In this document: in pieces, positions 1 through 11,525 of the stretch
How positions within the stretch are numbered: position 1 is the stretch's first letter
How the letters are laid out: each line of letters begins with the position of its first letter
UHGV virus genome: UHGV-1357462
Length of the DNA: 11,525 nt
Origin: a virus
Reading direction: 5' to 3' (one strand)
Translations under genes and position numbers: made by a program
Notes under the pieces: generated by a model
The model's input: the letters and a program-made list of their open reading frames with translations, nothing else
Database searches by the model: none
What the model was told of the DNA's origin: nothing

Positions 1-786
1 CTGATTGACTGTGCAGCCGAACCGACACAGTTTAACGGACGATCGCTGGTACAGATTGCGCAGGCGCTTGCTGCGCCTTTCGGCATTGAGGTGGTGAACA
101 ACAGTGCGCCGTCGGGTGTTATTCCTGATGTCCAGCCTGATCACGGCGAAACGGTGATTGAGGTGATCAACAAAATACTCGGTCAGCAGCAGGCACTGGC
201 TTACGACGACCCGCACGGCAGGCTGGTGATTGGCGGTATTGGCTCAACGCGGGCACATACCGCGCTGGTACTTGGGGAAAACATCCTTTCCTGTGATACG
301 GAGAAGAGTATCCGGGAGCGGTTTTCAGTTTACCAGGTGGCGGGGCAGCGTGCCGGAAACGACGATGATTTCGGTGAGGCCACCACCACCGCGCTGCGGG
401 CCCGCACAGAGGACGCATTTATTGCCCGTTACCGTCCGATGTATATCAGGCAGACAGGGCAGGCCACGGGGGCAGGCTGTATTGCCCGTGCGGACTTTGA
501 AGCCCGACAACGGGCGGCGCGGACGGATGAAACCACCTATGTGGTGCAGGGATGGCGACAGGGTAACGGTACGCTGTGGCAGCCCAACCAGCGGGTGATT
601 GTCTTCGATCCGGTCTGTGGTTTCGACAATACCGAACTGCTTGTCTCGGAAGTCACGTTTACTCAGGACCAGAACGGCACCCTGACGGAAATCCGTGTCG
701 GCCCACCTGATGCTTATCTGCCTGAACCCGAAGCCCCCGGCGCGCGGAAAAAGAAAAAAGCCAGAGTACAGGAGGACCCGTTCTGA
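1..786 (+). CDS. Phage baseplate hub protein, Mu gp44 (P)-like; 5'-partial
   Basis: Frame 1 has no stop from nt 1 (LIDCAAEPTQFNGRSLVQIAQALAAPFGIE precedes the tracked GTG at 91), so the gene enters from upstream. Its stop overlaps the next start (TGATG, 784-788). It is the first gene of a V / gp46 / J / gp48-like series, matching Mu 44-45-46-47-48 order. The assignment rests on synteny and remembered family appearance, not on alignment. Confidence 0.7.
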   Translation: MIDCAAEPTQFNGRSLVQIAQALAAPFGIEVVNNSAPSGVIPDVQPDHGETVIEVINKILGQQQALAYDDPHGRLVIGGIGSTRAHTALVLGENILSCDTEKSIRERFSVYQVAGQRAGNDDDFGEATTTALRARTEDAFIARYRPMYIRQTGQATGAGCIARADFEARQRAARTDETTYVVQGWRQGNGTLWQPNQRVIVFDPVCGFDNTELLVSEVTFTQDQNGTLTEIRVGPPDAYLPEPEAPGARKKKKARVQEDPF

Positions 787-1334
787 TGAGGACGATTGAA
801 GCCATGCAGCGACAACTCCTCGGCCTGATTGGGCGGGCTGTGGTGAAAAGCATCAGTGCCGCCACGAAATGTCAGACCGTGGATGTGTCCCTGATTGCCG
901 GTGAACCCAAAGCCGGGGTTGAACATCTTGAACCCTACGGTTTTACCGCAAGGGCAAACAGCGGTGCGGAAGCGGTGGTGTTGTTTCCGGATGGCGACCG
1001 TTCTCATGCGGTGGTTGTTACGGTGTCGGACCGGCGCTACCGCCTGAAAGGGCTGCAGACGGGTGAGGTGGCTGTCTATGACGATCAGGGGCAGTCCGTG
1101 ACGCTGACCCGGGAGGGGATCGTGGTGGACGGTGCAGGTAAGACGATCACGTTTCGCAATGCGCCCAGAGCACGTTTTGAAATGGACCTGGAAGTGACCG
1201 GACAGGTGAAAGACCTGTGCGACTCCGGCGGCACCACCATGTCAGCGATGCGGCTTGCCTATAACGGGCATCGTCACAGAGAGAACGGTCAGGGCAGTAA
1301 CACCGATAAACCTGATAAAGCGATGGAGGCATGA
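786..1334 (+). CDS. Baseplate spike / assembly protein V (Mu gp45, P2 gpV-like)
   Basis: 182-aa ORF, translationally coupled on both sides (TGATG upstream, ATGA downstream). The central segment GEVAVYDDQGQSVTLTREGIVVDGAGKTITF...LEVTGQV looks like the gpV spike fold. Its position between the hub and the gp46-like gene fits. Confidence 0.8.
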   Translation: MRTIEAMQRQLLGLIGRAVVKSISAATKCQTVDVSLIAGEPKAGVEHLEPYGFTARANSGAEAVVLFPDGDRSHAVVVTVSDRRYRLKGLQTGEVAVYDDQGQSVTLTREGIVVDGAGKTITFRNAPRARFEMDLEVTGQVKDLCDSGGTTMSAMRLAYNGHRHRENGQGSNTDKPDKAMEA

Positions 1335-1759
1335 TGGAACTGTGGCTGACGGTGAACGGTAAACGCACCTGCGCCAGCTCACCGCTGGATCCGCTGACCC
1401 GCGCCGTGGTGATTTCCCTGTTCACCTGGCGGCGGGCGGAGCCTGATGACAATGCCGACGTCCCGATGGGATGGTGGGGGGATACCTGGCCTGCGGTACA
1501 GAATGACCGTTACGGCTCCCGACTGTGGCTGCTTCAGCGCAGCAAACTGACCAATCAGCTGGTGCAGACGGTAAGGGGGTATATCCGCGAATGCCTGCAA
1601 TGGATGATTGATGACGGCGTGGTGTCCCGTATTGATCTGGATATCCGCCGCACCGGGATTAATGAGCTGGGTAACAGTATCACCCTCTGGCGTCGTGACG
1701 GACCGGTAATGATTTCTTTTGATGATCTGTGGAGTGCGATAACGCATGGCGGACAGTGA
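1331..1759 (+). CDS. Mu gp46-family baseplate protein
   Basis: 142-aa ORF with an ATGA overlap to the V gene. The segment WGDTWP...YGSRLWLLQRSKL resembles the GP46 family as I remember it. It sits directly upstream of the J-like gene, as in Mu. Confidence 0.75.
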   Translation: MMELWLTVNGKRTCASSPLDPLTRAVVISLFTWRRAEPDDNADVPMGWWGDTWPAVQNDRYGSRLWLLQRSKLTNQLVQTVRGYIRECLQWMIDDGVVSRIDLDIRRTGINELGNSITLWRRDGPVMISFDDLWSAITHGGQ

Positions 1760-2804
1760 ATTTCAGCGCCCGACGCTGGCAGAAAATATCAGTATGCTCC
1801 GTAACGATTTATTCGCCAGGCTGGACGTCAGCGACACGCTCCGGCGCATGGATGAAGACGTGCGGGCAAAGGTGTATGCGGCGGCGCTGCATACGGTTTA
1901 CGGGTACATCGATTATCTGGCAATGAACATGCTGCCTGACCTGTGCGATGAGTCCTGGCTGGCGCGACATGCTGCGATGAAACGGTGTCCGCGCAAGGGG
2001 GCCACGGCTGCCAGCGGGTATATGCGCTGGGAAGGTGTCAGCGATGGCCTGAAGGTGACTGCCGGGAGTGTTATTCAGCGCGATGACCTGGTTCAGTACA
2101 CGGCAACTGCCGATGCAACCAGCTCCGGTGGTGTCCTGCGCGTGCCGATCGCCTGCTCAAGTGCAGGCGCGGTCGGTAACGCTGACGACGGTACGTCATT
2201 AATCCTGGTCACGCCGGTTAATGGTCTGCCGTCTTCCGGCGTGGCAGATACCCTGACAGGTGGATTTGATACTGAAGAGCTGGAAACGTGGCGCGCCCGC
2301 GTCATTGAGCGATATTACTGGACGCCTCAGGGCGGGGCTGACGGGGACTATGTCGTCTGGGCTAAAGAAGTGCCCGGCATTACCCGCGCATGGACATACC
2401 GTCACTGGATGGGAACGGGAACTGTCGGTGTGATGATTGCCAGCAGTGACCTGATTAATCCCATTCCGGAAGAATCAACGGAAACGGCGGCAAGACAACA
2501 CATTGAGCCACTGGCCCCGGTGGCAGGCTCTGATTTGTATGTATTCAGGCCGGTGGCACATACGGTGGATTTTCATATCCGCGTGACGCCGGACACACCA
2601 GAAATACGGGCTGCCATTACCGCGGAGTTGCGTTCGTTCCTGCTGCGTGATGGTTATCCGCAGGGAGAACTGAAGGTATCGCGTATCAGTGAGGCGATTT
2701 CCGGTGCGAACGGGGAATACAGCCATCAGTTGCTTGCACCGGTGGACAATATCTCCATTGCGAAAAATGAGCTGGCGGTTCTGGGGACGATTTCATGGAC
2801 GTGA
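1746..2804 (+). CDS. Baseplate J-like protein (Mu gp47 / P2 gpJ / e14 JayE family)
   Basis: 352-aa ORF that overlaps its neighbours by 14 and 10 nt. Size and position match Baseplate_J family wedge proteins, and the composition is GC-rich like the rest of the operon. Confidence 0.85.
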
Positions 2805-3379
2805 CAAACGATGATTACATCCGCCTGTTATCGGCACTGTTGCCGCCCGGTCCTGCATGGTCAGCCAGCGATCCGGCGATTGCCGGTGCGGCACCTTCAT
2901 TAACCCGCGTTCATCAGCGTGCGGATGCTCTGATGCGGGAGCTTGATCCGCGCACCACCACCGAGCTGATAAATCGCTGGGAGCGTCTGTGTGGCCTGCC
3001 GGATGAATGTATTCCCGCAGGGACACAGACCCTTCGCCAGCGTCAGCAACGGCTGGATGCGAAGGTTAACCTGGCGGGTGGCATCAACGAGGATTTTTAT
3101 CTTGCACAGCTTGCTGCCCTGGGCAGACCAGATGCCACCATCACGCGATACGACAAAAGCACGTTCACCTGCTCATCGGCCTGTACTGACGCTGTGAATG
3201 CGCCGGAATGGCGGTATTACTGGCAGGTCAACATGCCAGCCGCCACCAACACCACCTGGATGACATGTGGCGATCCCTGTGATTCCGCGCTGCGTATCTG
3301 GGGCGACACCGTTGTCGAGTGTGTGCTTAACAAACTCTGCCCGTCGCATACCTACGTAATTTTTAAATATCCGGAGTAA
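2795..3379 (+). CDS. YmfQ-like / DUF2313 tail protein (Mu gp48-like)
   Basis: 194-aa ORF. The N-terminal [16 protein letters not shown] is the signature start of YmfQ/Mu gp48-type proteins. It lies between the J-like gene and the tail fibre, as in e14 and Mu. Confidence 0.8.
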
Positions 3380-3382
3380 TCC

Positions 3383-4129
3383 ATGCATCGTATAGACACG
3401 AAAACCGCGCAGAAGGATAAGTTCGGCGCGGGTAAGAACGGTTTTACCCGTGGTAACCCCCAGACAGGCACGCCTGCCACCGATCTGGATGATGACTACT
3501 TTGACATGTTGCAGGAAGAACTCTGCAGCGTGGTGGAGGCATCCGGTGCCAGTCTGGAGAAGGCGCGGCACGACCAACTGCTTACCGCGCTTCGTGCGCT
3601 GCTGTTAAGCCGCAAGAATCCGTTTGGCGATATCAAATCGGATGGCACGGTGAAAACGGCTCTCGAAAACCTTGGTTTGGGAGAAGGTGCTCCAGCTATT
3701 GGCGTTCCGTTCTTCTGGCCGTCCGCTGCAATGCCAAATACTGTAATCGACAGCTGGTCCAGTATGGTGTTTTTGAAGTTCAACGGCGCGAAATTCTCTG
3801 CCACTGATTATCCTGTGCTGGCGAAAGTGTTTCCTTCGCTGGTATTACCTGAAGCCCGCGGTGATTTCATTCGTATCTGGGATGACGGGCGAGGTGCAGA
3901 CGGTGGTCGCGAATTATTAAGCTGGCAGGAAGCTACAAACTTTTCTCAGTTTGCCGGGAATATAGGCGGAGGTGCGGGACACGCAATTAACTTTCATGAT
4001 GGCATCGCCGGAAATCAGCCAGGATTTTCACGATTTAATTTCACCAGTAACTCTGTGGGTGATGGTGTGAATTTTGTTGCTGTCAGACCGCGAAATATTG
4101 CATTTAACTTTCTGGTGAGGGCTAAATAA
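3383..4129 (+). CDS. Short tail fibre protein (constant N-terminus fused to the currently expressed variable C-terminus, Sc+Sv)
   Basis: 248-aa ORF. The N-terminus [46 protein letters not shown] is the conserved start of short fibres in Mu-tail-type prophages. Codons 93-101 (ALENLGLGE) coincide with the left inversion site. DNA becomes visibly AT-richer after that point. The stop overlaps the tfa start (TAATG). Confidence 0.85.
3660..3685. repeat. Left DNA-invertase crossover site (hix/gix/pix-like)
   Basis: ctctcgaaaaccTTggtttgggagaa. It matches the reverse complement of 5465-5490 at 21 of 26 positions, including a perfect 14-bp block (3672-3685 vs 5465-5478) and the same central TT dinucleotide. 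It has the AAACC-NN-GGTTT core typical of Hin/Gin/Cin/Pin sites. Confidence 0.8.
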
Positions 4130-5116: not shown

Positions 5117-5464
5117 TCAATCTCCAAAAGCAATCCAGTAAGCAAAAGGATTTATTCCTTGCTCAGTCACAGATGACATCAGGGAAAATTGCGATGGTGA
5201 AACAGGTAATGCTGCAAAACTAACCATTGTTGACACACCTGACCGTGCATTATCGTACGATGCAACAACACAATAATTGGTATTGCTGAAAGATATCGGC
5301 AGGGTGATATTTACAGGTGAGCCTAATGGCCCTGATGCTGATATTCCCATTTGAATGATGGTTCCATCAGGCAATTTTCTCCAGCGATTAGAACTCGGAT
5401 TTCTTTTCCAGGCTGACATATCCGGTATCTGATTTTCTCCTGTGCCTACATCCCTTTTCGCCGC
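5117..5464 (-). CDS. Promoter-less alternative tail-fibre C-terminal cassette (Sv')
   Basis: The minus-strand frame is open through the right crossover site. The peptide ...NVGLGEAAKRDVGTGENQIPDMSAW... shares GLGE with the fibre at the left site. Inversion would therefore fuse fibre codons 1-101 to this cassette. The tracked Met at 5518 has no usable SD. Confidence 0.7.
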   Translation of the reverse strand, partial: AAKRDVGTGENQIPDMSAWKRNPSSNRWRKLPDGTIIQMGISASGPLGSPVNITLPISFSNTNYCVVASYDNARSGVSTMVSFAALPVSPSQFSLMSSVTEQGINPFAYWIAFGD

Positions 5465-5490
5465 TTCTCCCAAACCAACGTTTATGAAAA
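5465..5490. repeat. Right DNA-invertase crossover site (hix/gix/pix-like)
   Basis: ttctcccaaaccAAcgtttatgaaaa. It is the inverted partner of 3660-3685, lies 55 bp upstream of the invertase ATG, and resembles remembered hixL/gix sequences. Confidence 0.8.
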
Positions 5491-5544: not shown

Positions 5545-5901
5545 ATGCTTATTGGCTATGTACGTGTGTCAACAAATGACCAGAACACAGATCTACAGCG
5601 TAATGCGCTGAACTGTGCAGGATGCGAGCTGATTTTTGAAGACAAGATAAGCGGTACAAAGTCTGAAAGGCCGGGACTGAAAAAACTGCTCAGGACATTA
5701 TCGGAAGGTGACACTCTGGTTGTCTGGAAGCTGGATCGGCTGGGGCGTAGTATGCGGCATCTGGTCATTCTGGTTGAGGAGTTGCGCGAACGTGGCGTTA
5801 ATTTTCGCAGCCTAACGGATGCTATTGATATCAGCACGTCGATGGGGCGTTTTTTCTTTTATGTGATGGGGGCCTTGGCTGAAATTGAGTTTCAGGATTA
5901 A
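5545..5901 (+). pseudogene. pin: Serine DNA invertase, Gin/Pin/Cin/Hin family; 3'-truncated (catalytic domain only)
   Basis: MLIGYVRVSTNDQNTDLQRNAL...VVWKLDRLGRSM...GRFFFYVMGALAEIE is near-identical in pattern to Gin/Pin, with the catalytic Ser in YVRVSTNDQ. An SD (AGGGAG) lies 7 nt before ATG 5545. Family similarity stops at about nt 5889, followed by FQD-stop. Full-length family members are about 180-195 aa and carry a C-terminal HTH. No other frame continues the homology. Confidence 0.85.
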
Positions 5902-6062
5902 GCGATATCGTACTCACCCTTGGTCCCACCTAATAAATCTGAAGAACGGAAGCGCTGCCAGATGATGGTGGTGGCTACAATTATTCACACTCAATCTTCG
6001 GAGCAATCACGTACATCATAATGATGTTAGGAATACGGAGTTTAATGACTGTCCAGTGATGT

Positions 6063-6091
6063 AAAAAGAAACCCCGGCGTAGTAGCCGAGG
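6063..6091 (-). terminator. Rho-independent terminator of the protease gene
   Basis: On the minus strand the sequence reads CCTCGGC-TACTAC-GCCGGGG, a 7-bp stem with one G-U pair, followed by TTTCTTTTT. It lies 24 nt after the stop codon. Confidence 0.7.
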
Positions 6092-6114
6092 TCCTCAATC
6101 AGAAACTACAATAT

Positions 6115-7119
6115 TCACTGAGTGCCTTCATCTGGTTGCTCTGCTGGTAAGGTTCCAGCCTCTTCTTCAGTTTCCGCATGTTTTCCATCGCCTCCCTGGA
6201 CAGGTTCATCCCTTGGCGGTTCTGCTCTTCCTGAATTTTGGTCAGAGATTTCATCTCCTTCCTGAATTCTGCTGTTGTCATGGGAATCTTCCTCTGCGTT
6301 AGTTGTTTCATATTGTTTTTTAGGAGTTAAATCTTTAATCATCGGTTTGTCGAAGATAGAGATTTCGCCTGACGAAATCATTTCACCAAGAACTTCGTAC
6401 AGGTTGGCTGCAAAATCTGTAGGACTCTCAACATGGTTGAATAGTTCCCTCGCCTCTTTACGGTCTATCACAAAACCATGGGCTGGATATCCAGCGATCA
6501 ACTTGCCTAATGAGCTTTCCTTAAGATTTTTCGAGTGACTATTCAAACGTTCCCCATAGGAAAGCGCTATGTTCATTGCTCGCTGATGCTCCCCGAGTTT
6601 GATAGGGTCTATCTGTGAGGCCATCGGCGATATGATTGCTTCAGTAAGCTTAGCAGCAATATCTGCAGACATCTTTGTGCTAATTTGGTTTCTGTACTTT
6701 ATATCAAGTACGTATGATCTAAAGGTCGAAATAGCGCACTCTTTTATTTCATCAATCGCCGTTGCGATAACAAGGCCCGAGCTCAATTCGCCGATCTCAT
6801 CATTTTTCTTAAGTTGGATATCTAGAGGGCCAAGCTCACCCATATCACCAATCACGAGCTTATGAGCGGCGACAGCCATCAATGTTCCAGCACTTTTGCA
6901 AGGGCCAACAACTAGAACGGTGATGTGCTCATAGTTGTGTTGCAAAGCGCGGCCAATTCTATATCCTGCGCTGGGATCACCGCCATAGGTAGCGACGCAA
7001 AAAAGAACATTTTTTTGTAAACCATGGTTAGTTTTTCTTTCTTTAATCGCTTTGGTGATGTCGTGATGACCAGAGCGGTGAACATCGCCTATGTATACGT
7101 AAACGTCTGTATCTTGCAT
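6115..7119 (-). CDS. ClpP/SppA-fold serine protease (SDH-family Clp-fold proteinase-like) with an acidic low-complexity C-terminal tail
   Basis: 334-aa ORF with an SD (AGGGA) 5 nt before the ATG. The core FCVATYGGDPSAGYRIGRAL...ITVLVVGPCKSAGTLMAVAAHKLVIGDMGELGPLDIQL fits the remembered pattern T-x-GG...S-A-G-T...LGP-x-D-x-Q of S49/SDH Clp-fold peptidases. The last ~70 aa are rich in Glu, Asp, Gly, Pro and Gln. The family call comes from motif memory, not from a search. Confidence 0.65.
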   Translation of the reverse strand: MQDTDVYVYIGDVHRSGHHDITKAIKERKTNHGLQKNVLFCVATYGGDPSAGYRIGRALQHNYEHITVLVVGPCKSAGTLMAVAAHKLVIGDMGELGPLDIQLKKNDEIGELSSGLVIATAIDEIKECAISTFRSYVLDIKYRNQISTKMSADIAAKLTEAIISPMASQIDPIKLGEHQRAMNIALSYGERLNSHSKNLKESSLGKLIAGYPAHGFVIDRKEARELFNHVESPTDFAANLYEVLGEMISSGEISIFDKPMIKDLTPKKQYETTNAEEDSHDNSRIQEGDEISDQNSGRAEPPRDEPVQGGDGKHAETEEEAGTLPAEQPDEGTQ

Positions 7120-7320
7120 TTTAATCCCTATGAATAAAATGGTTGAATTTAATGCTGTTCCTCAGCCAAAGCACTGTATCGATAACCAAAATACCTCAGA
7201 TTTGTCGAGAAAACTATCTGGAAAATTAGGCTAACTCTTTGAATCTTCGGAATGCAAAAAAGATAATTTCTCTGGATGGGCGCTAAGTTGATGTGTAAGT
7301 ATGACGGTTAGAACGGTCTC

Positions 7321-7359
7321 GGAAACCGCAGGCACGTCGTATGCAAGAACGTGCTGCGG
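7321..7359 (-). terminator. Weak or leaky hairpin terminator after the dinI-like gene
   Basis: On the minus strand the sequence reads CCGCAGCACGT-(11-nt loop)-ACGTGCCTGCGG, an 11-bp GC-rich stem with one bulge. Only TTTCC follows it, so the U-tract is poor. Confidence 0.35.
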
Positions 7360-7427
7360 CTGGCTGGCGAACTTTCGATAGTGCGAGTATTGAATGATTT
7401 CCAGCCGTTACCGATTTTACGTGTTAA

Positions 7428-7676
7428 TTAGTGAACAAACCACTCGTCAGCAGATTCCCAGGTATCTTTCAGAGTCTCCTGAACAAAAGTTTTTGCAGAA
7501 TCCTTATCTGCGGTGCGTGTAACAGAAAGGCCATCGTTGCTGGTGGCTTTTACGATCACCTCTACATCGTCATAACGTTTACTGATGCGTCGGGTTAATT
7601 CTTCCTTTAACGCATCCACAGCACCGGTTGGCATTTTAGTCATTTTTTCTTTGGCTATGCAGATTTCAATACGCAT
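7428..7676 (-). CDS. dinI: DinI-family protein (DNA-damage-inducible, RecA modulator-like)
   Basis: The 82-aa product [40 protein letters not shown]...[16 protein letters not shown] parallels E. coli DinI (MRIEVTIAK...GAIDAL..EL.RRI...ETWESADDWFV). It has an SD (AGAGGGA) and a LexA-controlled promoter upstream. Confidence 0.9.
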
Positions 7677-7689
7677 AAAAGTCCCTCTA

Positions 7690-7709
7690 CACTGTGTTTG
7701 TATACAGTA
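7690..7709 (-). promoter_or_regulatory. LexA box 1 (SOS operator), between the -10 element and the SD of the dinI-like gene
   Basis: The minus strand reads TACTGTATACAAACACAGTG. This is CTGT-N8-ACAG (7692-7707), close to the consensus TACTGTATATATATACAGTA. Confidence 0.85.
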
Positions 7710-7712
7710 TTA

Positions 7713-7741
7713 TTTTTAACTGTATGAATAAACAGTGTCAA
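7713..7741 (-). promoter_or_regulatory. Sigma-70 promoter of the dinI-like gene
   Basis: On the minus strand there is TTGACA (7741-7736), a 17-nt spacer, then TAAAAA (7718-7713). The spacer is occupied by LexA box 2. Confidence 0.7.
7718..7737 (-). promoter_or_regulatory. LexA box 2 (SOS operator), filling the -35/-10 spacer
   Basis: The plus strand reads aaCTGTatgaataaACAGtg, which is CTGT-N8-ACAG at 7720-7735. Its centre is 28 bp from box 1. Confidence 0.85.
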
Positions 7742-7760
7742 TAGAACAAAGATTGCTGCA

Positions 7761-8178
7761 TGTACAAATGTTCTTTGGCTACAAATACACCTACTGATCA
7801 TGTTCTGCTATGCTCTGATACCTCCAAAATGTACAATCAGCGGCATGAATTTTTCTTTGTACATATGATTGTACATAATTAAAGAGACAACAATTATGAC
7901 AAGCCTTTTGGCCGCAGAGGTAGCGAAAAGAAGAACCTTTGCAATTATTTCTCACCCCAATAATTAAGTCCAAATTAAAGCTCTTTTACTCTTTCAAAAT
8001 CCTTTCAGTTAATTGAAGTTGAGCTATATAACTCATTTAAATACATTTGTTTATGTAGCTTCTTTAATTGAAAACTCTTTCATGTAACTTTAAATCGATC
8101 AGCTTGCTTTCATCAAAAACCTGTACATATGCTTGTACATAATGTACAAAACAGCAGAGGTGTTTTGCGATTTGTACA
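7761..8178. repeat. Two clusters of TGTACA(W)A repeats flanking the prfC-like core; candidate attP arm-type recombinase or RDF binding sites
   Basis: There are eight TGTACA hexamers, at 7761, 7830, 7858, 7870 | 8122, 8134, 8143, 8173, and I found none elsewhere in the window. A 22-bp direct repeat, tgtacatatgAttgtacataat (7858-7879) vs tgtacatatgCttgtacataat (8122-8143), has one mismatch. Confidence 0.6.
7896..7967 (+). other. prfC: Surrogate 5' end of prfC (RF3), 23 codons, containing the probable att core
   Basis: It translates as [23 protein letters not shown]-stop. E. coli PrfC starts [28 protein letters not shown], so similarity runs through ...ISHP (to about nt 7958) and then breaks. 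The fragment lies 220 bp upstream of the integrase on the same strand. Confidence 0.75.
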
Positions 8179-8187
8179 AGGTGAGTA

Positions 8188-9411
8188 ATGGCGCTGTCTG
8201 ATGCGTGGTTGCGTTCAGTCGTTGGAAAGGAACGTGATAAGGTTTTGGTTAAATCCGATCGTGATGGTCTGTCTGTCAGAGTATCACCGAAAGGTCGCGT
8301 AGTGTTCCAATATCGTTATCAATGGGCAGGGAAAGGTGAGCGTCTTGATATCGGAACTTACCCGGCAACTGGATTAAAAGAGGCCAGAGAAGAAGTTATC
8401 CGTCTTCGTGGTGAACTCGAGTCAAACCGTAATCCACGATTGGTCAAGCAGGCTGAAAAACGAAAAGCTACTGAAGCCATGACGGTAGAGTCTGTGATCC
8501 GTGCTTGGTATGAAGCATATTGTGTAAAAAATAAAAAAGGTTCTGAACAGATACTTCGCTCGTTTGAGCTGCACCTGTTCTCTAAAATCGGGAATATCCC
8601 TCACGATGCAGCTACATTGCATGATTGGTTAGAAGTCCTGGAGCCTCTTAGCACTAAGACTCCAGCAATAGCAGACCGATTGCTAATTAACGCAAAGCAG
8701 GCCCATGTCTGGGCGTATAAGAGAAAGCTCATTGAAACTCGCCCGCTGTCGGATATCACGGGTAAAGATATGGATATCCGTAAAGGTCAGAAGAAACGGT
8801 TTCTGACACATGATGAAATTAAAATCCTTTATGCTGCGATCGATGGTTCTCGAATGGTTCCTAAATACCGGGCCTTCATTAAACTATTGCTGCATTTTGG
8901 TTGCCGTAGTTCAGAGCTAATTACCGCCCGGGTGGACGATTTTGATTTCATTAATAAAGTATGGACTGTACCACCAGAACGACATAAGACAGGGGAGATA
9001 ACAGGCGAACCGCTAAAGCGGCCCATTATTGAACCGGTTGAAGAGCTTATAAAGTACGCTATCTCTATGAACAATGGTTCCGATATGCTTTTTACTAAGG
9101 AAGGAAGCAGGGAACCCGTTGGTCGGACATCATTGCAGTCGCTGCCTTACAATTTAATGCAGTACGCATGGCGGTGTTTAGGATATCAATTCCCTCATTG
9201 GTCTCTTCATGACTTGAGACGTACAGCTCGAACAAATTTTTCTGATCTTACTGCGCCTCATATCGCAGAAATTATGCTTGGTCATAAGCTGCCAGGGGTA
9301 TGGCAAGTTTATGATAAGAGCGATTATCTAGAAGAACAGCGTAAAGCTTACCTGGCATGGTGGAAGAGGGTTGAATCGATTGTTAATTGTACTATCTCTG
9401 ATTCAAACTGA
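8188..9411 (+). CDS. int: Tyrosine integrase, P4/SXT-like (DUF4102 N-terminal arm-binding domain plus catalytic domain)
   Basis: 407-aa ORF. The N-terminus LSDAWLRSV...DGLSVRVSPKGRVVFQYRYQWAGKGERLDIGTYPATGLKEAREE is the DUF4102 pattern. Catalytic signatures are present: FGCRSSEL (Arg), WSLHDLRRTART (H-x-x-R) and MLGHK...WQVYDKS (His...Tyr). Confidence 0.9.
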   Translation: MALSDAWLRSVVGKERDKVLVKSDRDGLSVRVSPKGRVVFQYRYQWAGKGERLDIGTYPATGLKEAREEVIRLRGELESNRNPRLVKQAEKRKATEAMTVESVIRAWYEAYCVKNKKGSEQILRSFELHLFSKIGNIPHDAATLHDWLEVLEPLSTKTPAIADRLLINAKQAHVWAYKRKLIETRPLSDITGKDMDIRKGQKKRFLTHDEIKILYAAIDGSRMVPKYRAFIKLLLHFGCRSSELITARVDDFDFINKVWTVPPERHKTGEITGEPLKRPIIEPVEELIKYAISMNNGSDMLFTKEGSREPVGRTSLQSLPYNLMQYAWRCLGYQFPHWSLHDLRRTARTNFSDLTAPHIAEIMLGHKLPGVWQVYDKSDYLEEQRKAYLAWWKRVESIVNCTISDSN

Positions 9412-9697
9412 CGGTTTGTATCACCTGAACATAACCAAATCTCCTAGCACACTTTGAGCGAGATGTGAGCGTTAAGTTTACGCCATTGTGTTGACATAAG
9501 AGGGGGGCGGGTATCGATATCATCACTATCCCTATGCCCCTAAATCGCTCCTGCCATTTGATAAATGCAGATGTTTACCACCAAATGTTTTTGATACTAT
9601 AGGTCGATTCATGATTTACCTAGAAACTTAGTTGTAACGAAAACTTCTTAACGGACACTATCTGGATAAAGTTAGTTTTTTATTTAAGAGGGTTAAC

Positions 9698-10417
9698 ATG
9701 TCAAAGTTAAAAAATGAACCATTAGTAAGGGTATCAGAAGAAGACGGAATAGAAATAAGGAAGATCCAATATCCAGATAATACGATAGAAAGAATTTATA
9801 AGCAGAAAGGTGTAATATTACCACGAATACCTTTAAAAGGCCGCTTTGTAGAACAATATGTGGCCTTACAGTTGCTTGATAAAGATCTTCGGAATGTTAT
9901 TGGTTGGGAGAATATAATAAAAAACATTTGTAATAACATTAATAAAGAACAACACTTTATTTATCCGGATTTAGAAAAGAATCTAATATTAAAGTCTTTA
10001 TTTATATCAAAAGTTGTTACTTACGGTAAGTGTTTTACAGAGGCGAAAGGGCGTCGATTCACATTGCAGAGAAAGCATGTGCCAGAAAAATACAGAGATT
10101 TACATGATTCTATTATGAATGTTAGACATAACTTTGCTGCCCATAAAGGTGAATTCGAATATGATCAATGTGGCTTGGTTTTAATATTGCCGGGGACCAA
10201 GAAGAAAAGGTACTATCATATTTTTTCAGAGCTCAATCAAATAAATTACGGTAATAATGAGGAAGATGATGAACGTTTTTTTATGTTATATGATTCACTG
10301 CGTGAAGTCATTAAAGAAAAACAAGATAAATTAATTGATAAAATATACGCTGAAAAGATTCATACTCAAACAATGGAGTATTGGTTGAGCCGAGCAGGAA
10401 AAGAAACAGAGATTTAA
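9698..10417 (+). CDS. Orphan hypothetical protein, 239 aa, very AT-rich; possible HEPN-like (R-x5-H) abortive-infection or exclusion protein
   Basis: It is an isolated ORF with an SD (AAGAGGG, 9686-9692) and ~280-bp non-coding flanks. I recognise no family. The motif V-R143-H-N-F-A-A-H149 (nt 10124-10144) is present. The composition contrasts strongly with the phage backbone. Confidence 0.6.
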   Translation: MSKLKNEPLVRVSEEDGIEIRKIQYPDNTIERIYKQKGVILPRIPLKGRFVEQYVALQLLDKDLRNVIGWENIIKNICNNINKEQHFIYPDLEKNLILKSLFISKVVTYGKCFTEAKGRRFTLQRKHVPEKYRDLHDSIMNVRHNFAAHKGEFEYDQCGLVLILPGTKKKRYYHIFSELNQINYGNNEEDDERFFMLYDSLREVIKEKQDKLIDKIYAEKIHTQTMEYWLSRAGKETEI

Positions 10418-10613
10418 TTTGTTCAGTATATAAAAGCTAATTTTTAAGGAGTAATTTTAAGATGATTAAAGCTGATTACATTGCGATAGGTACTCTACGA
10501 CTAACTTTTCAACAAGATTAAGGGGGTAATCAATTTTATTTGTATCAATGGTATGACATTTCTTGGTGATAATGTTTTGATCTTATCGATTCATGTCATA
10601 TGGTCATTGGTGA

Positions 10614-10639
10614 CGTCCGCTCTTGGTAAAGAGTGGACG
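10614..10639. other. Stem-loop between the convergent orf239 and xis
   Basis: cgtccgctctt-ggta-aagagtggacg forms an 11-bp stem with one G-U pair. No U-tract follows on either strand, so it is not a canonical intrinsic terminator. Confidence 0.4.
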
Positions 10640-10699
10640 CTCAGATTAGGTTTGGCATCTAAGCATAGATGTGTCAGCTCACATCTAAGCTAATACATA

Positions 10700-10894
10700 T
10701 TACTCAATCACTCCCGCAAATCTGTAAATCTTGTGTGATGCCCATTTATTTGGGCAGGATTTAATATCAGGATCTGGAAAGTCAGGCCTGTATTTCTGAC
10801 CAGTTCTCCTGTTTACGCTGTTCCAGCGAAGAACTGTCGATACTGAAACACCACAGAAATCGGCGACTTGTTTAGTTGTCATTAAGTTGTTCAT
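10700..10894 (-). CDS. xis: AlpA-family excisionase / recombination directionality factor (HTH)
   Basis: The 64-aa product has MTTKQVADFCGVSVSTVLRWNS...FPDPD...NKWASHKIYRF, which fits the AlpA/Xis winged-helix pattern (l..keva.l.gvS.sTv.rW....FP.P....rW). Its start overlaps the upstream stop (TAATG). This RDF type typically partners with P4-like integrases. Confidence 0.8.
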   Translation of the reverse strand: MNNLMTTKQVADFCGVSVSTVLRWNSVNRRTGQKYRPDFPDPDIKSCPNKWASHKIYRFAGVIE

Positions 10895-11525
10895 TACTTC
10901 ACCTCCTGCGGCGGCTCCGGTAGTGGCATCCAGTGGGTTACTTTCGATGCCTGTTCTTCCTCATTGTCAGTAACTGCCCACCATTTGTTTCTCGACCAAT
11001 CGTAATACCCTTCGAAGGTATCGCACTCAGTCCAGCCGTAAGACTTCCCCCAACACCAAACATACTGTTTATCATTCGGCATTCGCTCACTACAGCTTAT
11101 CCAACCACCCGGACTTACCGGAGAGTTGCCAGACAGCGCGTTCTGCAGCCGTTCCAGCTTAACGTATTCCTGAACCCTGTTTCCGTCGCACACCTGAAGC
11201 CATTGCGCAGCCTTTTGCGCATCAGTGTGAAAGGCACAAGTGCGACCGTCATCAAATTGCATTTCGTAGAGGTCAGCAACTTGTTCAAACTGCGTGTGTG
11301 GTGACTTGTAAGTTTGGTTTACAGGTTCGGCACCATGAAGCATGGCGGCGCGGCAGGCGTTCCAGCCTTCATCAAAACCGACTATGCCATTATTTAAAGA
11401 CGGACGAGCATCTGGCACTACCGGCACTGGCTTGGCTATATATAGCGGCTGAACATACCAGCCCTTTGATAACCAACTGTCAGCAATGTTTTTACACCTC
11501 GTTATTGCCGGAATACCTAAGCCAT
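10894..11525 (-). CDS. DUF551-domain early-region protein; the 5' end probably lies beyond the window
   Basis: The C-terminus GGWISCSERMPNDKQYVWCW...WWAVTDNEEEQASKVTHWMPLPEPP is the DUF551 pattern common in lambdoid early-left operons. The tracked start is GTG 11427 without an SD. The frame stays open with no stop up to nt 11525, so the gene is likely 5'-partial. Confidence 0.7.
   Translation of the reverse strand, partial: GLGIPAITRCKNIADSWLSKGWYVQPLYIAKPVPVVPDARPSLNNGIVGFDEGWNACRAAMLHGAEPVNQTYKSPHTQFEQVADLYEMQFDDGRTCAFHTDAQKAAQWLQVCDGNRVQEYVKLERLQNALSGNSPVSPGGWISCSERMPNDKQYVWCWGKSYGWTECDTFEGYYDWSRNKWWAVTDNEEEQASKVTHWMPLPEPPQEVK

Follow-up and report, generated by a model that had tools for sequence, protein, structure and literature searches.

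What does a temperate, e14-like phage of E. coli do with a stand-alone protease gene placed beside its attachment site? The gene lies in the virus genome UHGV-1357462, whose 11,525 nucleotides are the window analysed here, and an initial annotation made from the letters and ORF translations had proposed that it encodes a ClpP/SppA-fold serine protease with a role in defence, counter-defence or lysogenic conversion. We asked what kind of protein this is, how the gene came to occupy its slot, where its relatives are found and which role these data favour.

A divergent SDH-type serine peptidase

The ORF list confirms the minus-strand reading frame of 334 codons with an ATG start, and the low GC content ascribed to it is borne out as well (44.3% compared to 56.7% for the tail/baseplate operon at 91-4129). 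The Shine-Dalgarno sequence, initially called good, is present as AGGGA, but its grade is acceptable rather than strong. As had been claimed, the gene has an intrinsic terminator of its own, a hairpin followed by a U-run 20 nt past the stop codon, with a folding energy of -16.8 kcal/mol and z = -2.7 (RNA fold of 6094-6069, minus strand). The gene and its parts are as follows.

6069..6094, minus strand: intrinsic terminator of the protease gene, 10-bp GC-rich stem and U-run (terminator scan)
6115..7119, minus strand: protease coding sequence, predicted SDH-type Clp-fold serine peptidase, 334 aa
6118..6333, minus strand: codons 263-334, disordered acidic tail (pLDDT, composition)
6334..6810, minus strand: codons 104-262 (secondary structure, pLDDT, invariant columns)
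6811..7119, minus strand: codons 1-103, ClpP-like alpha/beta catalytic core (Ser76 at 6892-6894, Asp100 at 6820-6822)
7125..7129, minus strand: Shine-Dalgarno AGGGA, 5 nt before the ATG (read from the sequence)

Judged by context, the product is WP_001766808.1. It is matched along its full length by phrog_21683 (E = 1e-198), and at 19 near-identical E. coli loci RefSeq gives it the name "SDH family Clp fold serine proteinase". Because RefSeq already names the protein, the SDH family itself is not new; to our knowledge, it has no member of known function, and a search of the literature on the family, the accession and the PHROG found no published one. An apparent SppA match in PMC11317147 proved to be a text artefact of 'SP^PAM'.

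The proposed assignment to the SDH/Clp fold stands, with matches of the core to two profiles that both score under their curated cut-offs: PF01972 SDH_protease (E = 2.9e-6, 27.0 bits against a cut-off of 31.3) and NF047768 Clp_like_SDH (E = 5e-9, 35.9 bits against 250). The SDH profile match is confined to the N-terminal ~70-90 residues, and SDH is the best-scoring family for the protease and for all 67 aligned relatives, several of which exceed the Pfam cut-off. From these scores the protein looks like a divergent SDH subfamily. A PDB search with the single sequence returned no match, and one with a profile returned only weak matches to ClpP and NfeD. The ClpP/crotonase fold is present with Ser76 as the nucleophile at the strand-helix elbow; in agreement with the KSAGT motif singled out at the start, this serine lies in CKSAGT and aligns with the nucleophile serine of ClpP (AASMG) and of 1510-N (AASAGT). 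A check for loss of catalytic residues, which had been named as a possible objection, found Ser76, Asp100 and His214 retained in all 264 homologues (100% invariant) in the sequence order Ser-Asp-His. Going by the Pfam description, this order presumably sets the SDH family apart from ClpP, and the protease has the Clp fold in common with the family, together with a putative catalytic set of invariant Ser, Asp and His in that order. Its sequence places the protein in the SDH branch of ClpP/SppA-fold serine peptidases, with predicted activity.

Comparison with better known peptidases places it at some distance from them. ClpP (S14) shares the nucleophile serine at the strand-helix elbow at an overall identity to the protease of 11-18%, but by alignment reasoning the position of its catalytic histidine corresponds to a GELGPLD segment in the protease, which has its candidate histidine near the C-terminus and three long helices in place of the ClpP handle. 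The PF00574 domain of ClpP has no match in the protease and a weak match in 14 of the 67 relatives, and there is no sign of an ATPase partner or a tetradecamer as in ClpP. NfeD 1510-N has a similar 'SAGT' nucleophile motif; SppA and NfeD are, however, membrane proteases with a Ser-Lys dyad, whereas the protease is unanchored, and its invariant His214 together with Asp100 suggests a triad rather than such a dyad. With no membrane segment or signal peptide, an acidic N-terminus and a top 19-residue hydropathy of 1.59 that falls inside a buried core strand, the protein is predicted to be soluble and cytoplasmic. Beyond the core, codons 104-262 begin with a flexible loop (104-112), continue with three long helices (115-196) that form a bundle specific to the family, and include a conserved YPxHGFVIDRxEA segment that holds His214 (6478-6480) and Asp219. 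This C-terminal helical domain, like the disordered tail, is particular to the protease's subfamily. Extra domains are absent from the longer homologues, whose extensions are probably mis-called starts.

These features, together with the genomic setting, bear on whether the gene might encode a head-maturation or scaffold protease of the virion (ClpP-related or S49) or a membrane signal-peptide peptidase. Some database entries do label the protein SppA, and it has weak matches to Clp_rel_HeadMat (28.7 bits) and to PHROG head-maturation protease families, but the former score is far under the cut-off of 120 for that model (NF045542), no Peptidase_S49 Pfam match accompanies the missing membrane segment and signal peptide, and the gene lies on the opposite strand to, and outside, the late operon. 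There are no head genes within the window, as the initial annotation had noted in arguing against a prohead protease, and that argument is strengthened by a 100%-identical prophage of APEC E19025, which has a separate HK97-family prohead protease between portal and capsid. We consider a head-maturation or signal-peptide role effectively refuted.

A swap-in cassette between pin and the attachment site

Homology to three sibling prophages stops at 5889 and resumes at 7322 (blastn), on either side of a cassette of ~1.4 kb that lies between a truncated pin invertase and dinI/attP. The features of this region are as follows.

5545..5889, plus strand: pin-type invertase, C-terminal part missing (PF00239, E = 4.6e-40)
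5890..7321, no strand: swap-in cassette, comprising an S24 fragment, the terminator, the protease gene and 202 nt of upstream DNA
5891..6064, plus strand: S24 pseudogene fragment, 3' end of a HumD/UmuD-like peptidase gene (RefSeq annotation)
7324..7361, minus strand: dinI-protease intergenic hairpin with a weak U-tail, UUUCC (RNA fold)
7428..7676, minus strand: dinI-like gene, upstream of the protease gene on the same strand (PF06183, E = 1e-19)
7916..7957, no strand: attP core, 42 bp, present at both junctions (attR, attL) of the APEC E19025 prophage (blastn)

The protease gene had been said to begin exactly where the invertase gene is broken. The cassette border does coincide with the truncation of pin (5889/5890), but the gene itself lies further in, with a 174-nt S24 pseudogene fragment and the terminator between the border and its stop codon. 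The pin copy retains the resolvase catalytic domain only and carries the RefSeq label 'missing C-terminus'. Strain UTME-7 has the same cassette behind an intact pin, and dusA-integrated prophages, which are of a different type, contain it together with dinI. In sibling prophages this slot is occupied by a DUF4145 protein or an LPO_1073/Vpar_1526 protein, or else is empty; PADLOC found no match for the DUF4145 and LPO_1073 proteins. The proposal that the gene is accessory cargo is thus well founded, since it sits in a variable slot with alternative cargo in sibling prophages and, with conserved phage genes on its flanks, has the positional attributes of prophage hotspot cargo (a moron); because there are sibling prophages that lack the gene, it is dispensable for the phage. 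The comparison with e14 is also sound in that the e14 order is pinE-mcrA-att, which makes the slot syntenic, but McrA is an HNH restriction nuclease and is not homologous to the protease. The cassette is a single-gene mobile unit with its own terminator beside the attachment site of an e14-like prophage, which carries Mu-type baseplate genes. The phage carries a copy of the prfC 5' end, with the translation MTSLLAAEVAKRRTFAIISH, and the attP core falls within it.

The S24 fragment is frameshifted, fused to the truncated pin and 70-77% identical in nucleotides to the 3' ends of intact HumD-family/S24 peptidase genes. We ruled it out as the remnant of an operon of cI and an SDH gene, given that it runs convergently to the protease gene and resembles the 3' ends of HumD/UmuD-like genes.

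Upstream of the protease gene, dinI is preceded by two perfect LexA boxes at 7692-7707 and 7720-7735 (CTGT-N8-ACAG, 0 mismatches), and neither a LexA box nor a convincing promoter was found immediately 5' of the protease gene. The hairpin between the two genes has a folding energy of -21.6 kcal/mol at a z of only -1.06 and was not called by the terminator scan; it is possibly a leaky terminator that might permit SOS read-through into the protease gene.

Relatives behind phage repressors and in other hotspots

Homologues occur in 49 of 5426 complete E. coli genomes (0.9%), one copy each, and the survey of prophage positions suggested in the initial annotation placed them always inside prophage hotspots. 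The homologue in 28 of these 49 genomes is a ~60%-identical paralogue of a type found directly downstream of cI. All five cI-downstream loci sampled have cI followed by the SDH gene, with cro/cII divergent; the gap between cI and the SDH gene is ~115 nt, and at one such locus it contains no terminator, a strong terminator lies past the SDH gene and ahead of pL, and both pL and pR are lambda-like. In other genomes a P63C-domain protein or a hypothetical one lies between the same cI-N flanks. RexAB of lambda and BstA of Salmonella BTP1 are abortive-infection genes co-transcribed with cI. They lie in the same cI-N slot as the protease paralogues and, like them, have no terminator after cI and one before pL, but their proteins are unrelated to the protease, and the window copy is in the pin-att slot instead. 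The cI-N region has been described as a mosaic hotspot containing rexAB and bstA (PMC8585504).

A third setting is provided by a P2-like Burkholderia phage with a homologue in the gpA-gpQ slot, flanked by int/primase on one side and by a toxin-antitoxin pair and the portal gene on the other; this slot is the old/tin hotspot of P2-like phages (10.1101/2021.01.21.427644). The family hence recurs in three independent prophage positions known for exclusion genes, namely pin-att, cI-N and gpA-gpQ.

Linkage to repressors extends to viral contigs, where a phage repressor is the commonest neighbour of the SDH gene: an HTH-S24 gene lies immediately upstream on the same strand at 41 of 80 IMG/VR loci and, after dereplication at 70%, in 16 of 30 clusters. 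HTH-S24 is also the sole recurrent neighbour of homologues in species genomes. The SDH gene of Klebsiella phage ST13-OXA48phi12.4 is divergent from an XRE/ImmA pair, and at least three loci have CapH/CapP-like DNA-damage regulators beside the SDH gene (capP E ~1e-17), a type that governs many immune operons (10.1101/2022.04.27.489752; PMC13228613).

Across bacteria, the SDH family comprises ~3000 clusters at 50% identity from many phyla, with homologues that are rare and patchy, in synteny that is not conserved; many non-enteric ones lie among housekeeping genes with no phage markers. Only 2 of 50,697 sequenced phage genomes contain a homologue, and both are temperate, none virulent. Neither the protease nor its neighbours in the window had a match among the 5027 models of PADLOC-DB v2 at E <= 1. 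Enrichment next to defence genes, the other survey that had been suggested, was not borne out, as 76 species-level loci gave scattered R-M, PD-Lambda-1 and PDC genes that are not clearly above background.

Candidate roles of the protease

The repressor-adjacent and hotspot positions make the protease look like a lysogen-expressed accessory protease. We propose that the gene may be a moron expressed from the prophage, through co-transcription with the repressor in the lambdoid paralogues and, for the window copy, from a weak promoter of its own and/or by read-through from LexA-controlled dinI, and that its product would act in phage-phage or phage-host conflict. Most probably it would be an effector of superinfection exclusion or abortive infection which, once triggered, cleaves either an essential protein of the host or one of the infecting phage. 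The position of the gene is what points to a defence role, and we hold that role tentatively, at somewhat less than an even chance. Hotspot slots are home to non-defence morons too, which counts against it, as do the missing PADLOC match, the housekeeping-sited homologues, the unclear enrichment of defence neighbours and the lack of a convincing promoter. Protease-based abortive infection exists in the same prophage lineage in the form of e14 Lit, but because Lit is a zinc metalloprotease, encoded elsewhere in e14 and not homologous to the protease, the analogy is only conceptual.

Other roles have to be weighed against defence. The protease could instead regulate the lysis-lysogeny decision by acting on the repressor or another switch protein and so tuning induction or immunity, much as ImmA cleaves ImmR and CapP cleaves CapH. 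In about half of the viral lineages and in 28 E. coli prophages the gene is right behind the repressor in what appears to be the same operon, a layout of cI and SDH gene that mirrors immR-immA, and SDH genes also occur near XRE and M78 pairs and near SOS-controlled dinI. In the window, however, no intact repressor adjoins the protease gene, the S24 fragment being HumD/UmuD-like and convergent, and the cassette travels independently of cI. A single SDH allele group is found with at least two different cI alleles, homology breaking off precisely at the border of cI, which is unlike the expectation for co-evolving partners; moreover, self-cleavage of S24 repressors makes a second protease unnecessary, and many homologues are orphans in whose vicinity there is no regulator. 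We regard a regulatory role as improbable, although it would add a new layer to the lysis-lysogeny switch. A role in counter-defence or host takeover, in which the protease is made on induction or early in infection and degrades a host defence or SOS component, seems to us similarly improbable. It would fit the place of the gene behind LexA-controlled dinI, from which just a weak hairpin separates it, the DNA-damage-responsive regulators near SDH genes, the divergent XRE/ImmA pair of the Klebsiella phage and, more speculatively, an acidic tail that could mimic nucleic acid. It fits less well with an independent transcription unit that has its own terminator and with homologues so scarce among phage genomes and restricted to temperate ones, and the location behind cI, closed off by a terminator ahead of pL, implies a gene active in the lysogen and not one belonging to the lytic programme.

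The protease might also have no part in conflict and serve an accessory or housekeeping purpose, stress proteolysis or the turnover of peptides for example, as a passive passenger of prophages. The breadth of the family, the many copies among housekeeping genes and the absence of the protease from recognised defence systems agree with this, but its confinement to prophage hotspots in under one per cent of complete E. coli genomes and the unconserved synteny do not, and a housekeeping enzyme would hardly be expected to show so strong and repeated a linkage to phage repressors. We judge this unlikely, if slightly less so than the two preceding roles.

Returning to defence, the protease is a candidate, open to testing, for a new phage-exclusion gene that works by proteolysis. 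More specifically, the family could constitute a new single-gene prophage system of abortive infection or superinfection exclusion, with copies in the hotspots of rexAB, mcrA and old/tin in three temperate-phage types that are unrelated to one another. Its expression would accompany that of the repressor or the SOS response, and the disordered tail with its C-terminal motif would hold it latent until an infecting phage sets off the cleavage of a key protein of phage or host; in this full form we think the proposal rather doubtful. If the protease does defend the lysogen, a Clp-fold serine peptidase would join the short list of protease-based phage-exclusion mechanisms, and a family known by name only would gain its first function. 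The repeated siting behind cI also suggests a simple rule for finding lysogen-expressed effectors, which is to inspect the replacements of rexAB. A single 1-kb E. coli gene with obvious catalytic mutants makes for a cheap test system.

Latency is where the tail may matter. The acidic, disordered tail noted at the outset has a net charge of -15 and a pI of 4.1 over residues 263-334, with pLDDT below 50 from residue 271. Together with a conserved C-terminal motif it may serve for autoinhibition or regulation, for which there is a precedent in Bacillus SppA, whose own C-terminus fills the active site according to the title of PDB 4kwb. Among 213 homologues the tails have a median length of 64 aa and 84% are net negative, so that a mostly acidic, poorly conserved disordered C-terminal tail appears from these sequences to be a trait of the family. 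The tail of the protease ends in GTLPAEQPDE, the motif conserved among enterobacterial relatives.

The protease and its gene

The protease is encoded by a minus-strand ORF of 334 aa (6115..7119) that opens with ATG and carries an AGGGA Shine-Dalgarno 5 nt 5' of this start. Terminator scanning and RNA folding place a GC-rich hairpin with a U-run at 6094-6069, 20 nt past the stop codon, with a predicted energy of -16.8 kcal/mol (z = -2.7) that was equalled in only 1 of 200 shuffles. At 44.3% GC the gene is AT-rich relative to the baseplate/tail operon (91-4129; 56.7%), and in all of these respects it is as the initial annotation had described it. Judged from the DNA, expression of the window's copy is uncertain: neither a good sigma-70 promoter nor a LexA box was found upstream of it, and between it and SOS-controlled dinI there is only a weak hairpin (z = -1.06).

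The proposed membership in the SDH/Clp-fold peptidases, with the serine of KSAGT as nucleophile, held up. The protein matches Pfam SDH_protease (PF01972; E = 2.9e-6) over residues 37-106 only and NCBIfam Clp_like_SDH, both under their curated cut-offs (27.0 bits against 31.3 and 35.9 bits against 250, respectively), and PHROG 21683 ('unknown function') spans its full length (E = 1e-198). PF01972 is the top Pfam family in 67 of 67 aligned relatives, some of which score above the cut-off, and we take the protein to belong to a divergent subfamily within the SDH branch. AlphaFold2, run on an alignment of 67 sequences, models residues 1-270 with confidence (block pLDDT mostly 85-98) and gives disorder at residues 104-112 and 271-334; among viral models, Foldseek ranks giant-virus 'serine dehydrogenase proteinases' first. 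Consistent with this fold match, a family profile aligned CKS76AGT with the nucleophile motifs of ClpP (AASMG) and 1510-N (AASAGT), with a weak E of about 0.1. Ser76, Asp100 and His214 are retained in all 264 homologues, as are G46, G47, C74, G78, G97, P98, Q102, S114, Y188 and F227; the Ser-Asp-His order is the hallmark of the SDH family in Pfam. Neither a signal peptide nor a membrane segment was found in the protein, whose maximum 19-residue hydropathy (1.59) falls in a buried core strand, so that the name 'SppA protein' found in some databases is misleading. Together, these data show the predicted product to be a cytoplasmic SDH-type Clp-fold serine peptidase with predicted activity.

The tail, previously noted as rich in E/D/G/P/Q, comprises the last ~72 residues, is also T-rich, and has a net charge of -15 and a pI of 4.1. 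Tails in 213 homologues have a median length of 64 aa and 9% hydrophobic residues and are net negative in 84% of cases, which marks the tail as a family trait by composition, not by sequence. A short motif, G-[TA]-[LIV]-P-x-x-Q-P-D, is retained at the C-terminus of enterobacterial members as distant as about 59% identity, and the tail may be regulatory.

An exchangeable cassette between pin and dinI

Homology with sibling prophages ends at 5889, inside the pin invertase gene, and returns at 7322, delimiting a variable cassette (5890-7321). The features of this region are as follows.

5891-6064, plus strand: frameshifted 3' fragment of a HumD/UmuD-like S24 peptidase gene, in the cassette
6094-6069, minus strand: terminator of the protease gene, in the cassette
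6115..7119, minus strand: protease gene, 334 aa, ATG start, in the cassette
Right end of the cassette: 202 nt of upstream DNA
7428-7676, minus strand: dinI, with two perfect LexA boxes
7916-7957: attP core, 42 bp, inside a phage-borne copy of the prfC 5' end
8188-9411: integrase gene, right of attP

The protease gene had been thought to begin exactly where the invertase gene is broken; because the S24 fragment and the terminator lie between the two, this is true of the cassette border and not of the gene. Strain UTME-7 has the same cassette behind an intact pin. The S24 fragment, which is fused to pin, accompanies the protease cassette in all contexts seen; it was considered as a piece of a cI repressor and rejected as such, being related to translesion accessory genes of the HumD/UmuD type, at their 3' ends, in other E. 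coli prophages.

Other prophages of this type fill the slot with a DUF4145 protein gene (sibling-prophage locus L002 4690-5385) or with a small 84-aa ORF and an LPO_1073/Vpar_1526 protein gene (sibling-prophage locus L003 4995-6187), or leave it empty; in e14 of K-12 it holds the type IV restriction gene mcrA, as the initial annotation had stated. No PADLOC model matched the DUF4145, 84-aa or LPO_1073/Vpar_1526 genes, and these may be further unrecognised hotspot genes. At 94.6% identity, cassette and dinI also occur together in prophages integrated at dusA: one has lambda-type tail genes, the other the window's Mu-type baseplate and tail-fibre module. These comparisons show the protease gene to be a dispensable, horizontally exchanged single-gene cassette.

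Genomic positions and candidate roles

Across its relatives, the protease gene is found time and again at three prophage sites where exclusion genes are known to reside, and its commonest neighbour is a phage repressor. Homologues occur in 49 of 5426 complete E. coli genomes, each with one chromosomal copy; 21 carry the window allele and 28 another one, about 70% identical to it in nucleotides and about 60% in amino acids. In 5 of 5 sampled loci, which represent every sub-group, this second allele lies directly 3' of an S24-type cI on the same strand, with cro and cII divergent and N farther on. At one of these lambdoid loci, L097, no terminator separates cI from the protease gene, a strong one lies behind the latter, and the flanking promoters have hexamers identical to those of lambda pL and pR, an architecture matching that of lambda cI-rexA-rexB. 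Both rexAB and bstA are known from the cI-N interval, which is documented as a mosaic hotspot (PMC8585504). Within the same flanks, other genomes carry a P63C-domain gene or a small hypothetical gene, which add to the uncharacterised genes seen at the rexAB position in otherwise homologous lambdoid prophages (loci L097-L101, database hits H105-H112).

In IMG/VR, 106 viral contigs encode a relative, and an HTH-S24 ORF lies immediately upstream on the same strand in 41 of 80 fetched loci (median gap 115 nt), or in 21 of 39 and 16 of 30 clusters after dereplication at 90% and 70% identity. Among 76 species-level genome loci, the sole recurrent neighbour was HTH_3 with Peptidase_S24 (about 10 loci); XRE and M78 peptidase pairs lay nearby in 5-6, of which 3 match PADLOC capP (E about 1e-17) and 2 of these also capH. 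CapH/CapP regulators turn on many immune operons upon DNA damage (10.1101/2022.04.27.489752; PMC13228613); the pairs found here are not consistently oriented as regulators of the protease gene. Only 2 of 50,697 sequenced phage genomes have a homologue: a temperate Klebsiella phage, beside an XRE/ImmA pair near dinI, and a P2-like Burkholderia phage, between int/primase and a toxin-antitoxin pair with the portal gene. The latter position is the gpA-gpQ hotspot, where P2 has old and tin (10.1101/2021.01.21.427644). The family is large (about 3071 clusters at 50% identity, E <= 1e-3), and many of the remaining homologues are orphans amid unrelated genes in diverse phyla.

We tentatively favor a role in defence, for which the support is entirely positional: the protease would be expressed from the prophage and would serve in conflict between phages or between phage and host, with exclusion or abortive infection as its most likely task. 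A modulator of the lysogenic switch on the ImmA/CapP pattern is improbable, given that at least 2 different cI alleles are paired with the protease allele, making the gene independent of any particular one, and that no intact repressor lies beside the window copy. Lysogenic transcript architecture and near absence from sequenced phages likewise make a counter-defence or induction-time factor quite unlikely, and a peptidase without a part in conflict is unlikely. A head protease or signal-peptide peptidase is effectively refuted; the 100%-identical prophage of strain APEC E19025 has, in the interval from portal to capsid gene, a separate prohead protease of the HK97 family, which rules out head maturation and agrees with the initial annotation.

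The existence of the family is not new, as it is already named in RefSeq. Our literature search found neither a function nor a link to phage conflict for it, and no known defence model in PADLOC matched the protease. What is new is the synteny with repressors and hotspot positions. We regard this divergent SDH subfamily member as a protease moron or candidate abortive-infection gene, and as a cheap, well-defined candidate for experiment.

Adjoining regions of the window

The cassette is separated from dinI by a stretch of about 110 nt (7322-7444) that sibling genomes have annotated as a 'capsid protein' fragment. Its recurrence beside dinI in prophages of unrelated types suggests a scar of recombination that marks the right border of the swap site. 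Beyond dinI (7677-7957), the phage copy of the prfC start has its ATG at 7896 (MTSLLAAEVAKRRTFAIISH) and runs into the 42-bp att core, so that in lysogens the prfC 5' end and promoter region are phage DNA. This region and dinI, with its pair of LexA boxes, are divergent neighbours that share a 220-bp intergenic stretch, and SOS could therefore influence prfC in lysogens. Past attP, the sequence runs on into this phage type's integrase end (7916-11525; 95% identity to the E19025 attL side), which indicates that the source is a phage genome in circular or excised form, or else a tandem lysogen, and not a simple prophage-chromosome junction.

A 20-nt inverted repeat (3667-3686 and 5464-5483, 95% complementary; left arm AAACCTTGGTTTGGGAGAAG) flanks the tail-fibre C-terminus and tfa genes, and the bracketed segment is a Pin/Gin-type invertible host-range segment. 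With the C-terminal DNA-binding part missing from pin, inversion has probably come to a halt here, barring help in trans from another invertase. Adjoining the integrase gene is a 239-aa ORF (9698-10417, plus strand; 31.5% GC) covered over its full length by phrog_8440 (unknown function) and without a Pfam or PADLOC match; in a sibling prophage another hypothetical gene, of 271 aa, takes this position, which is thus probably a second variable moron slot.
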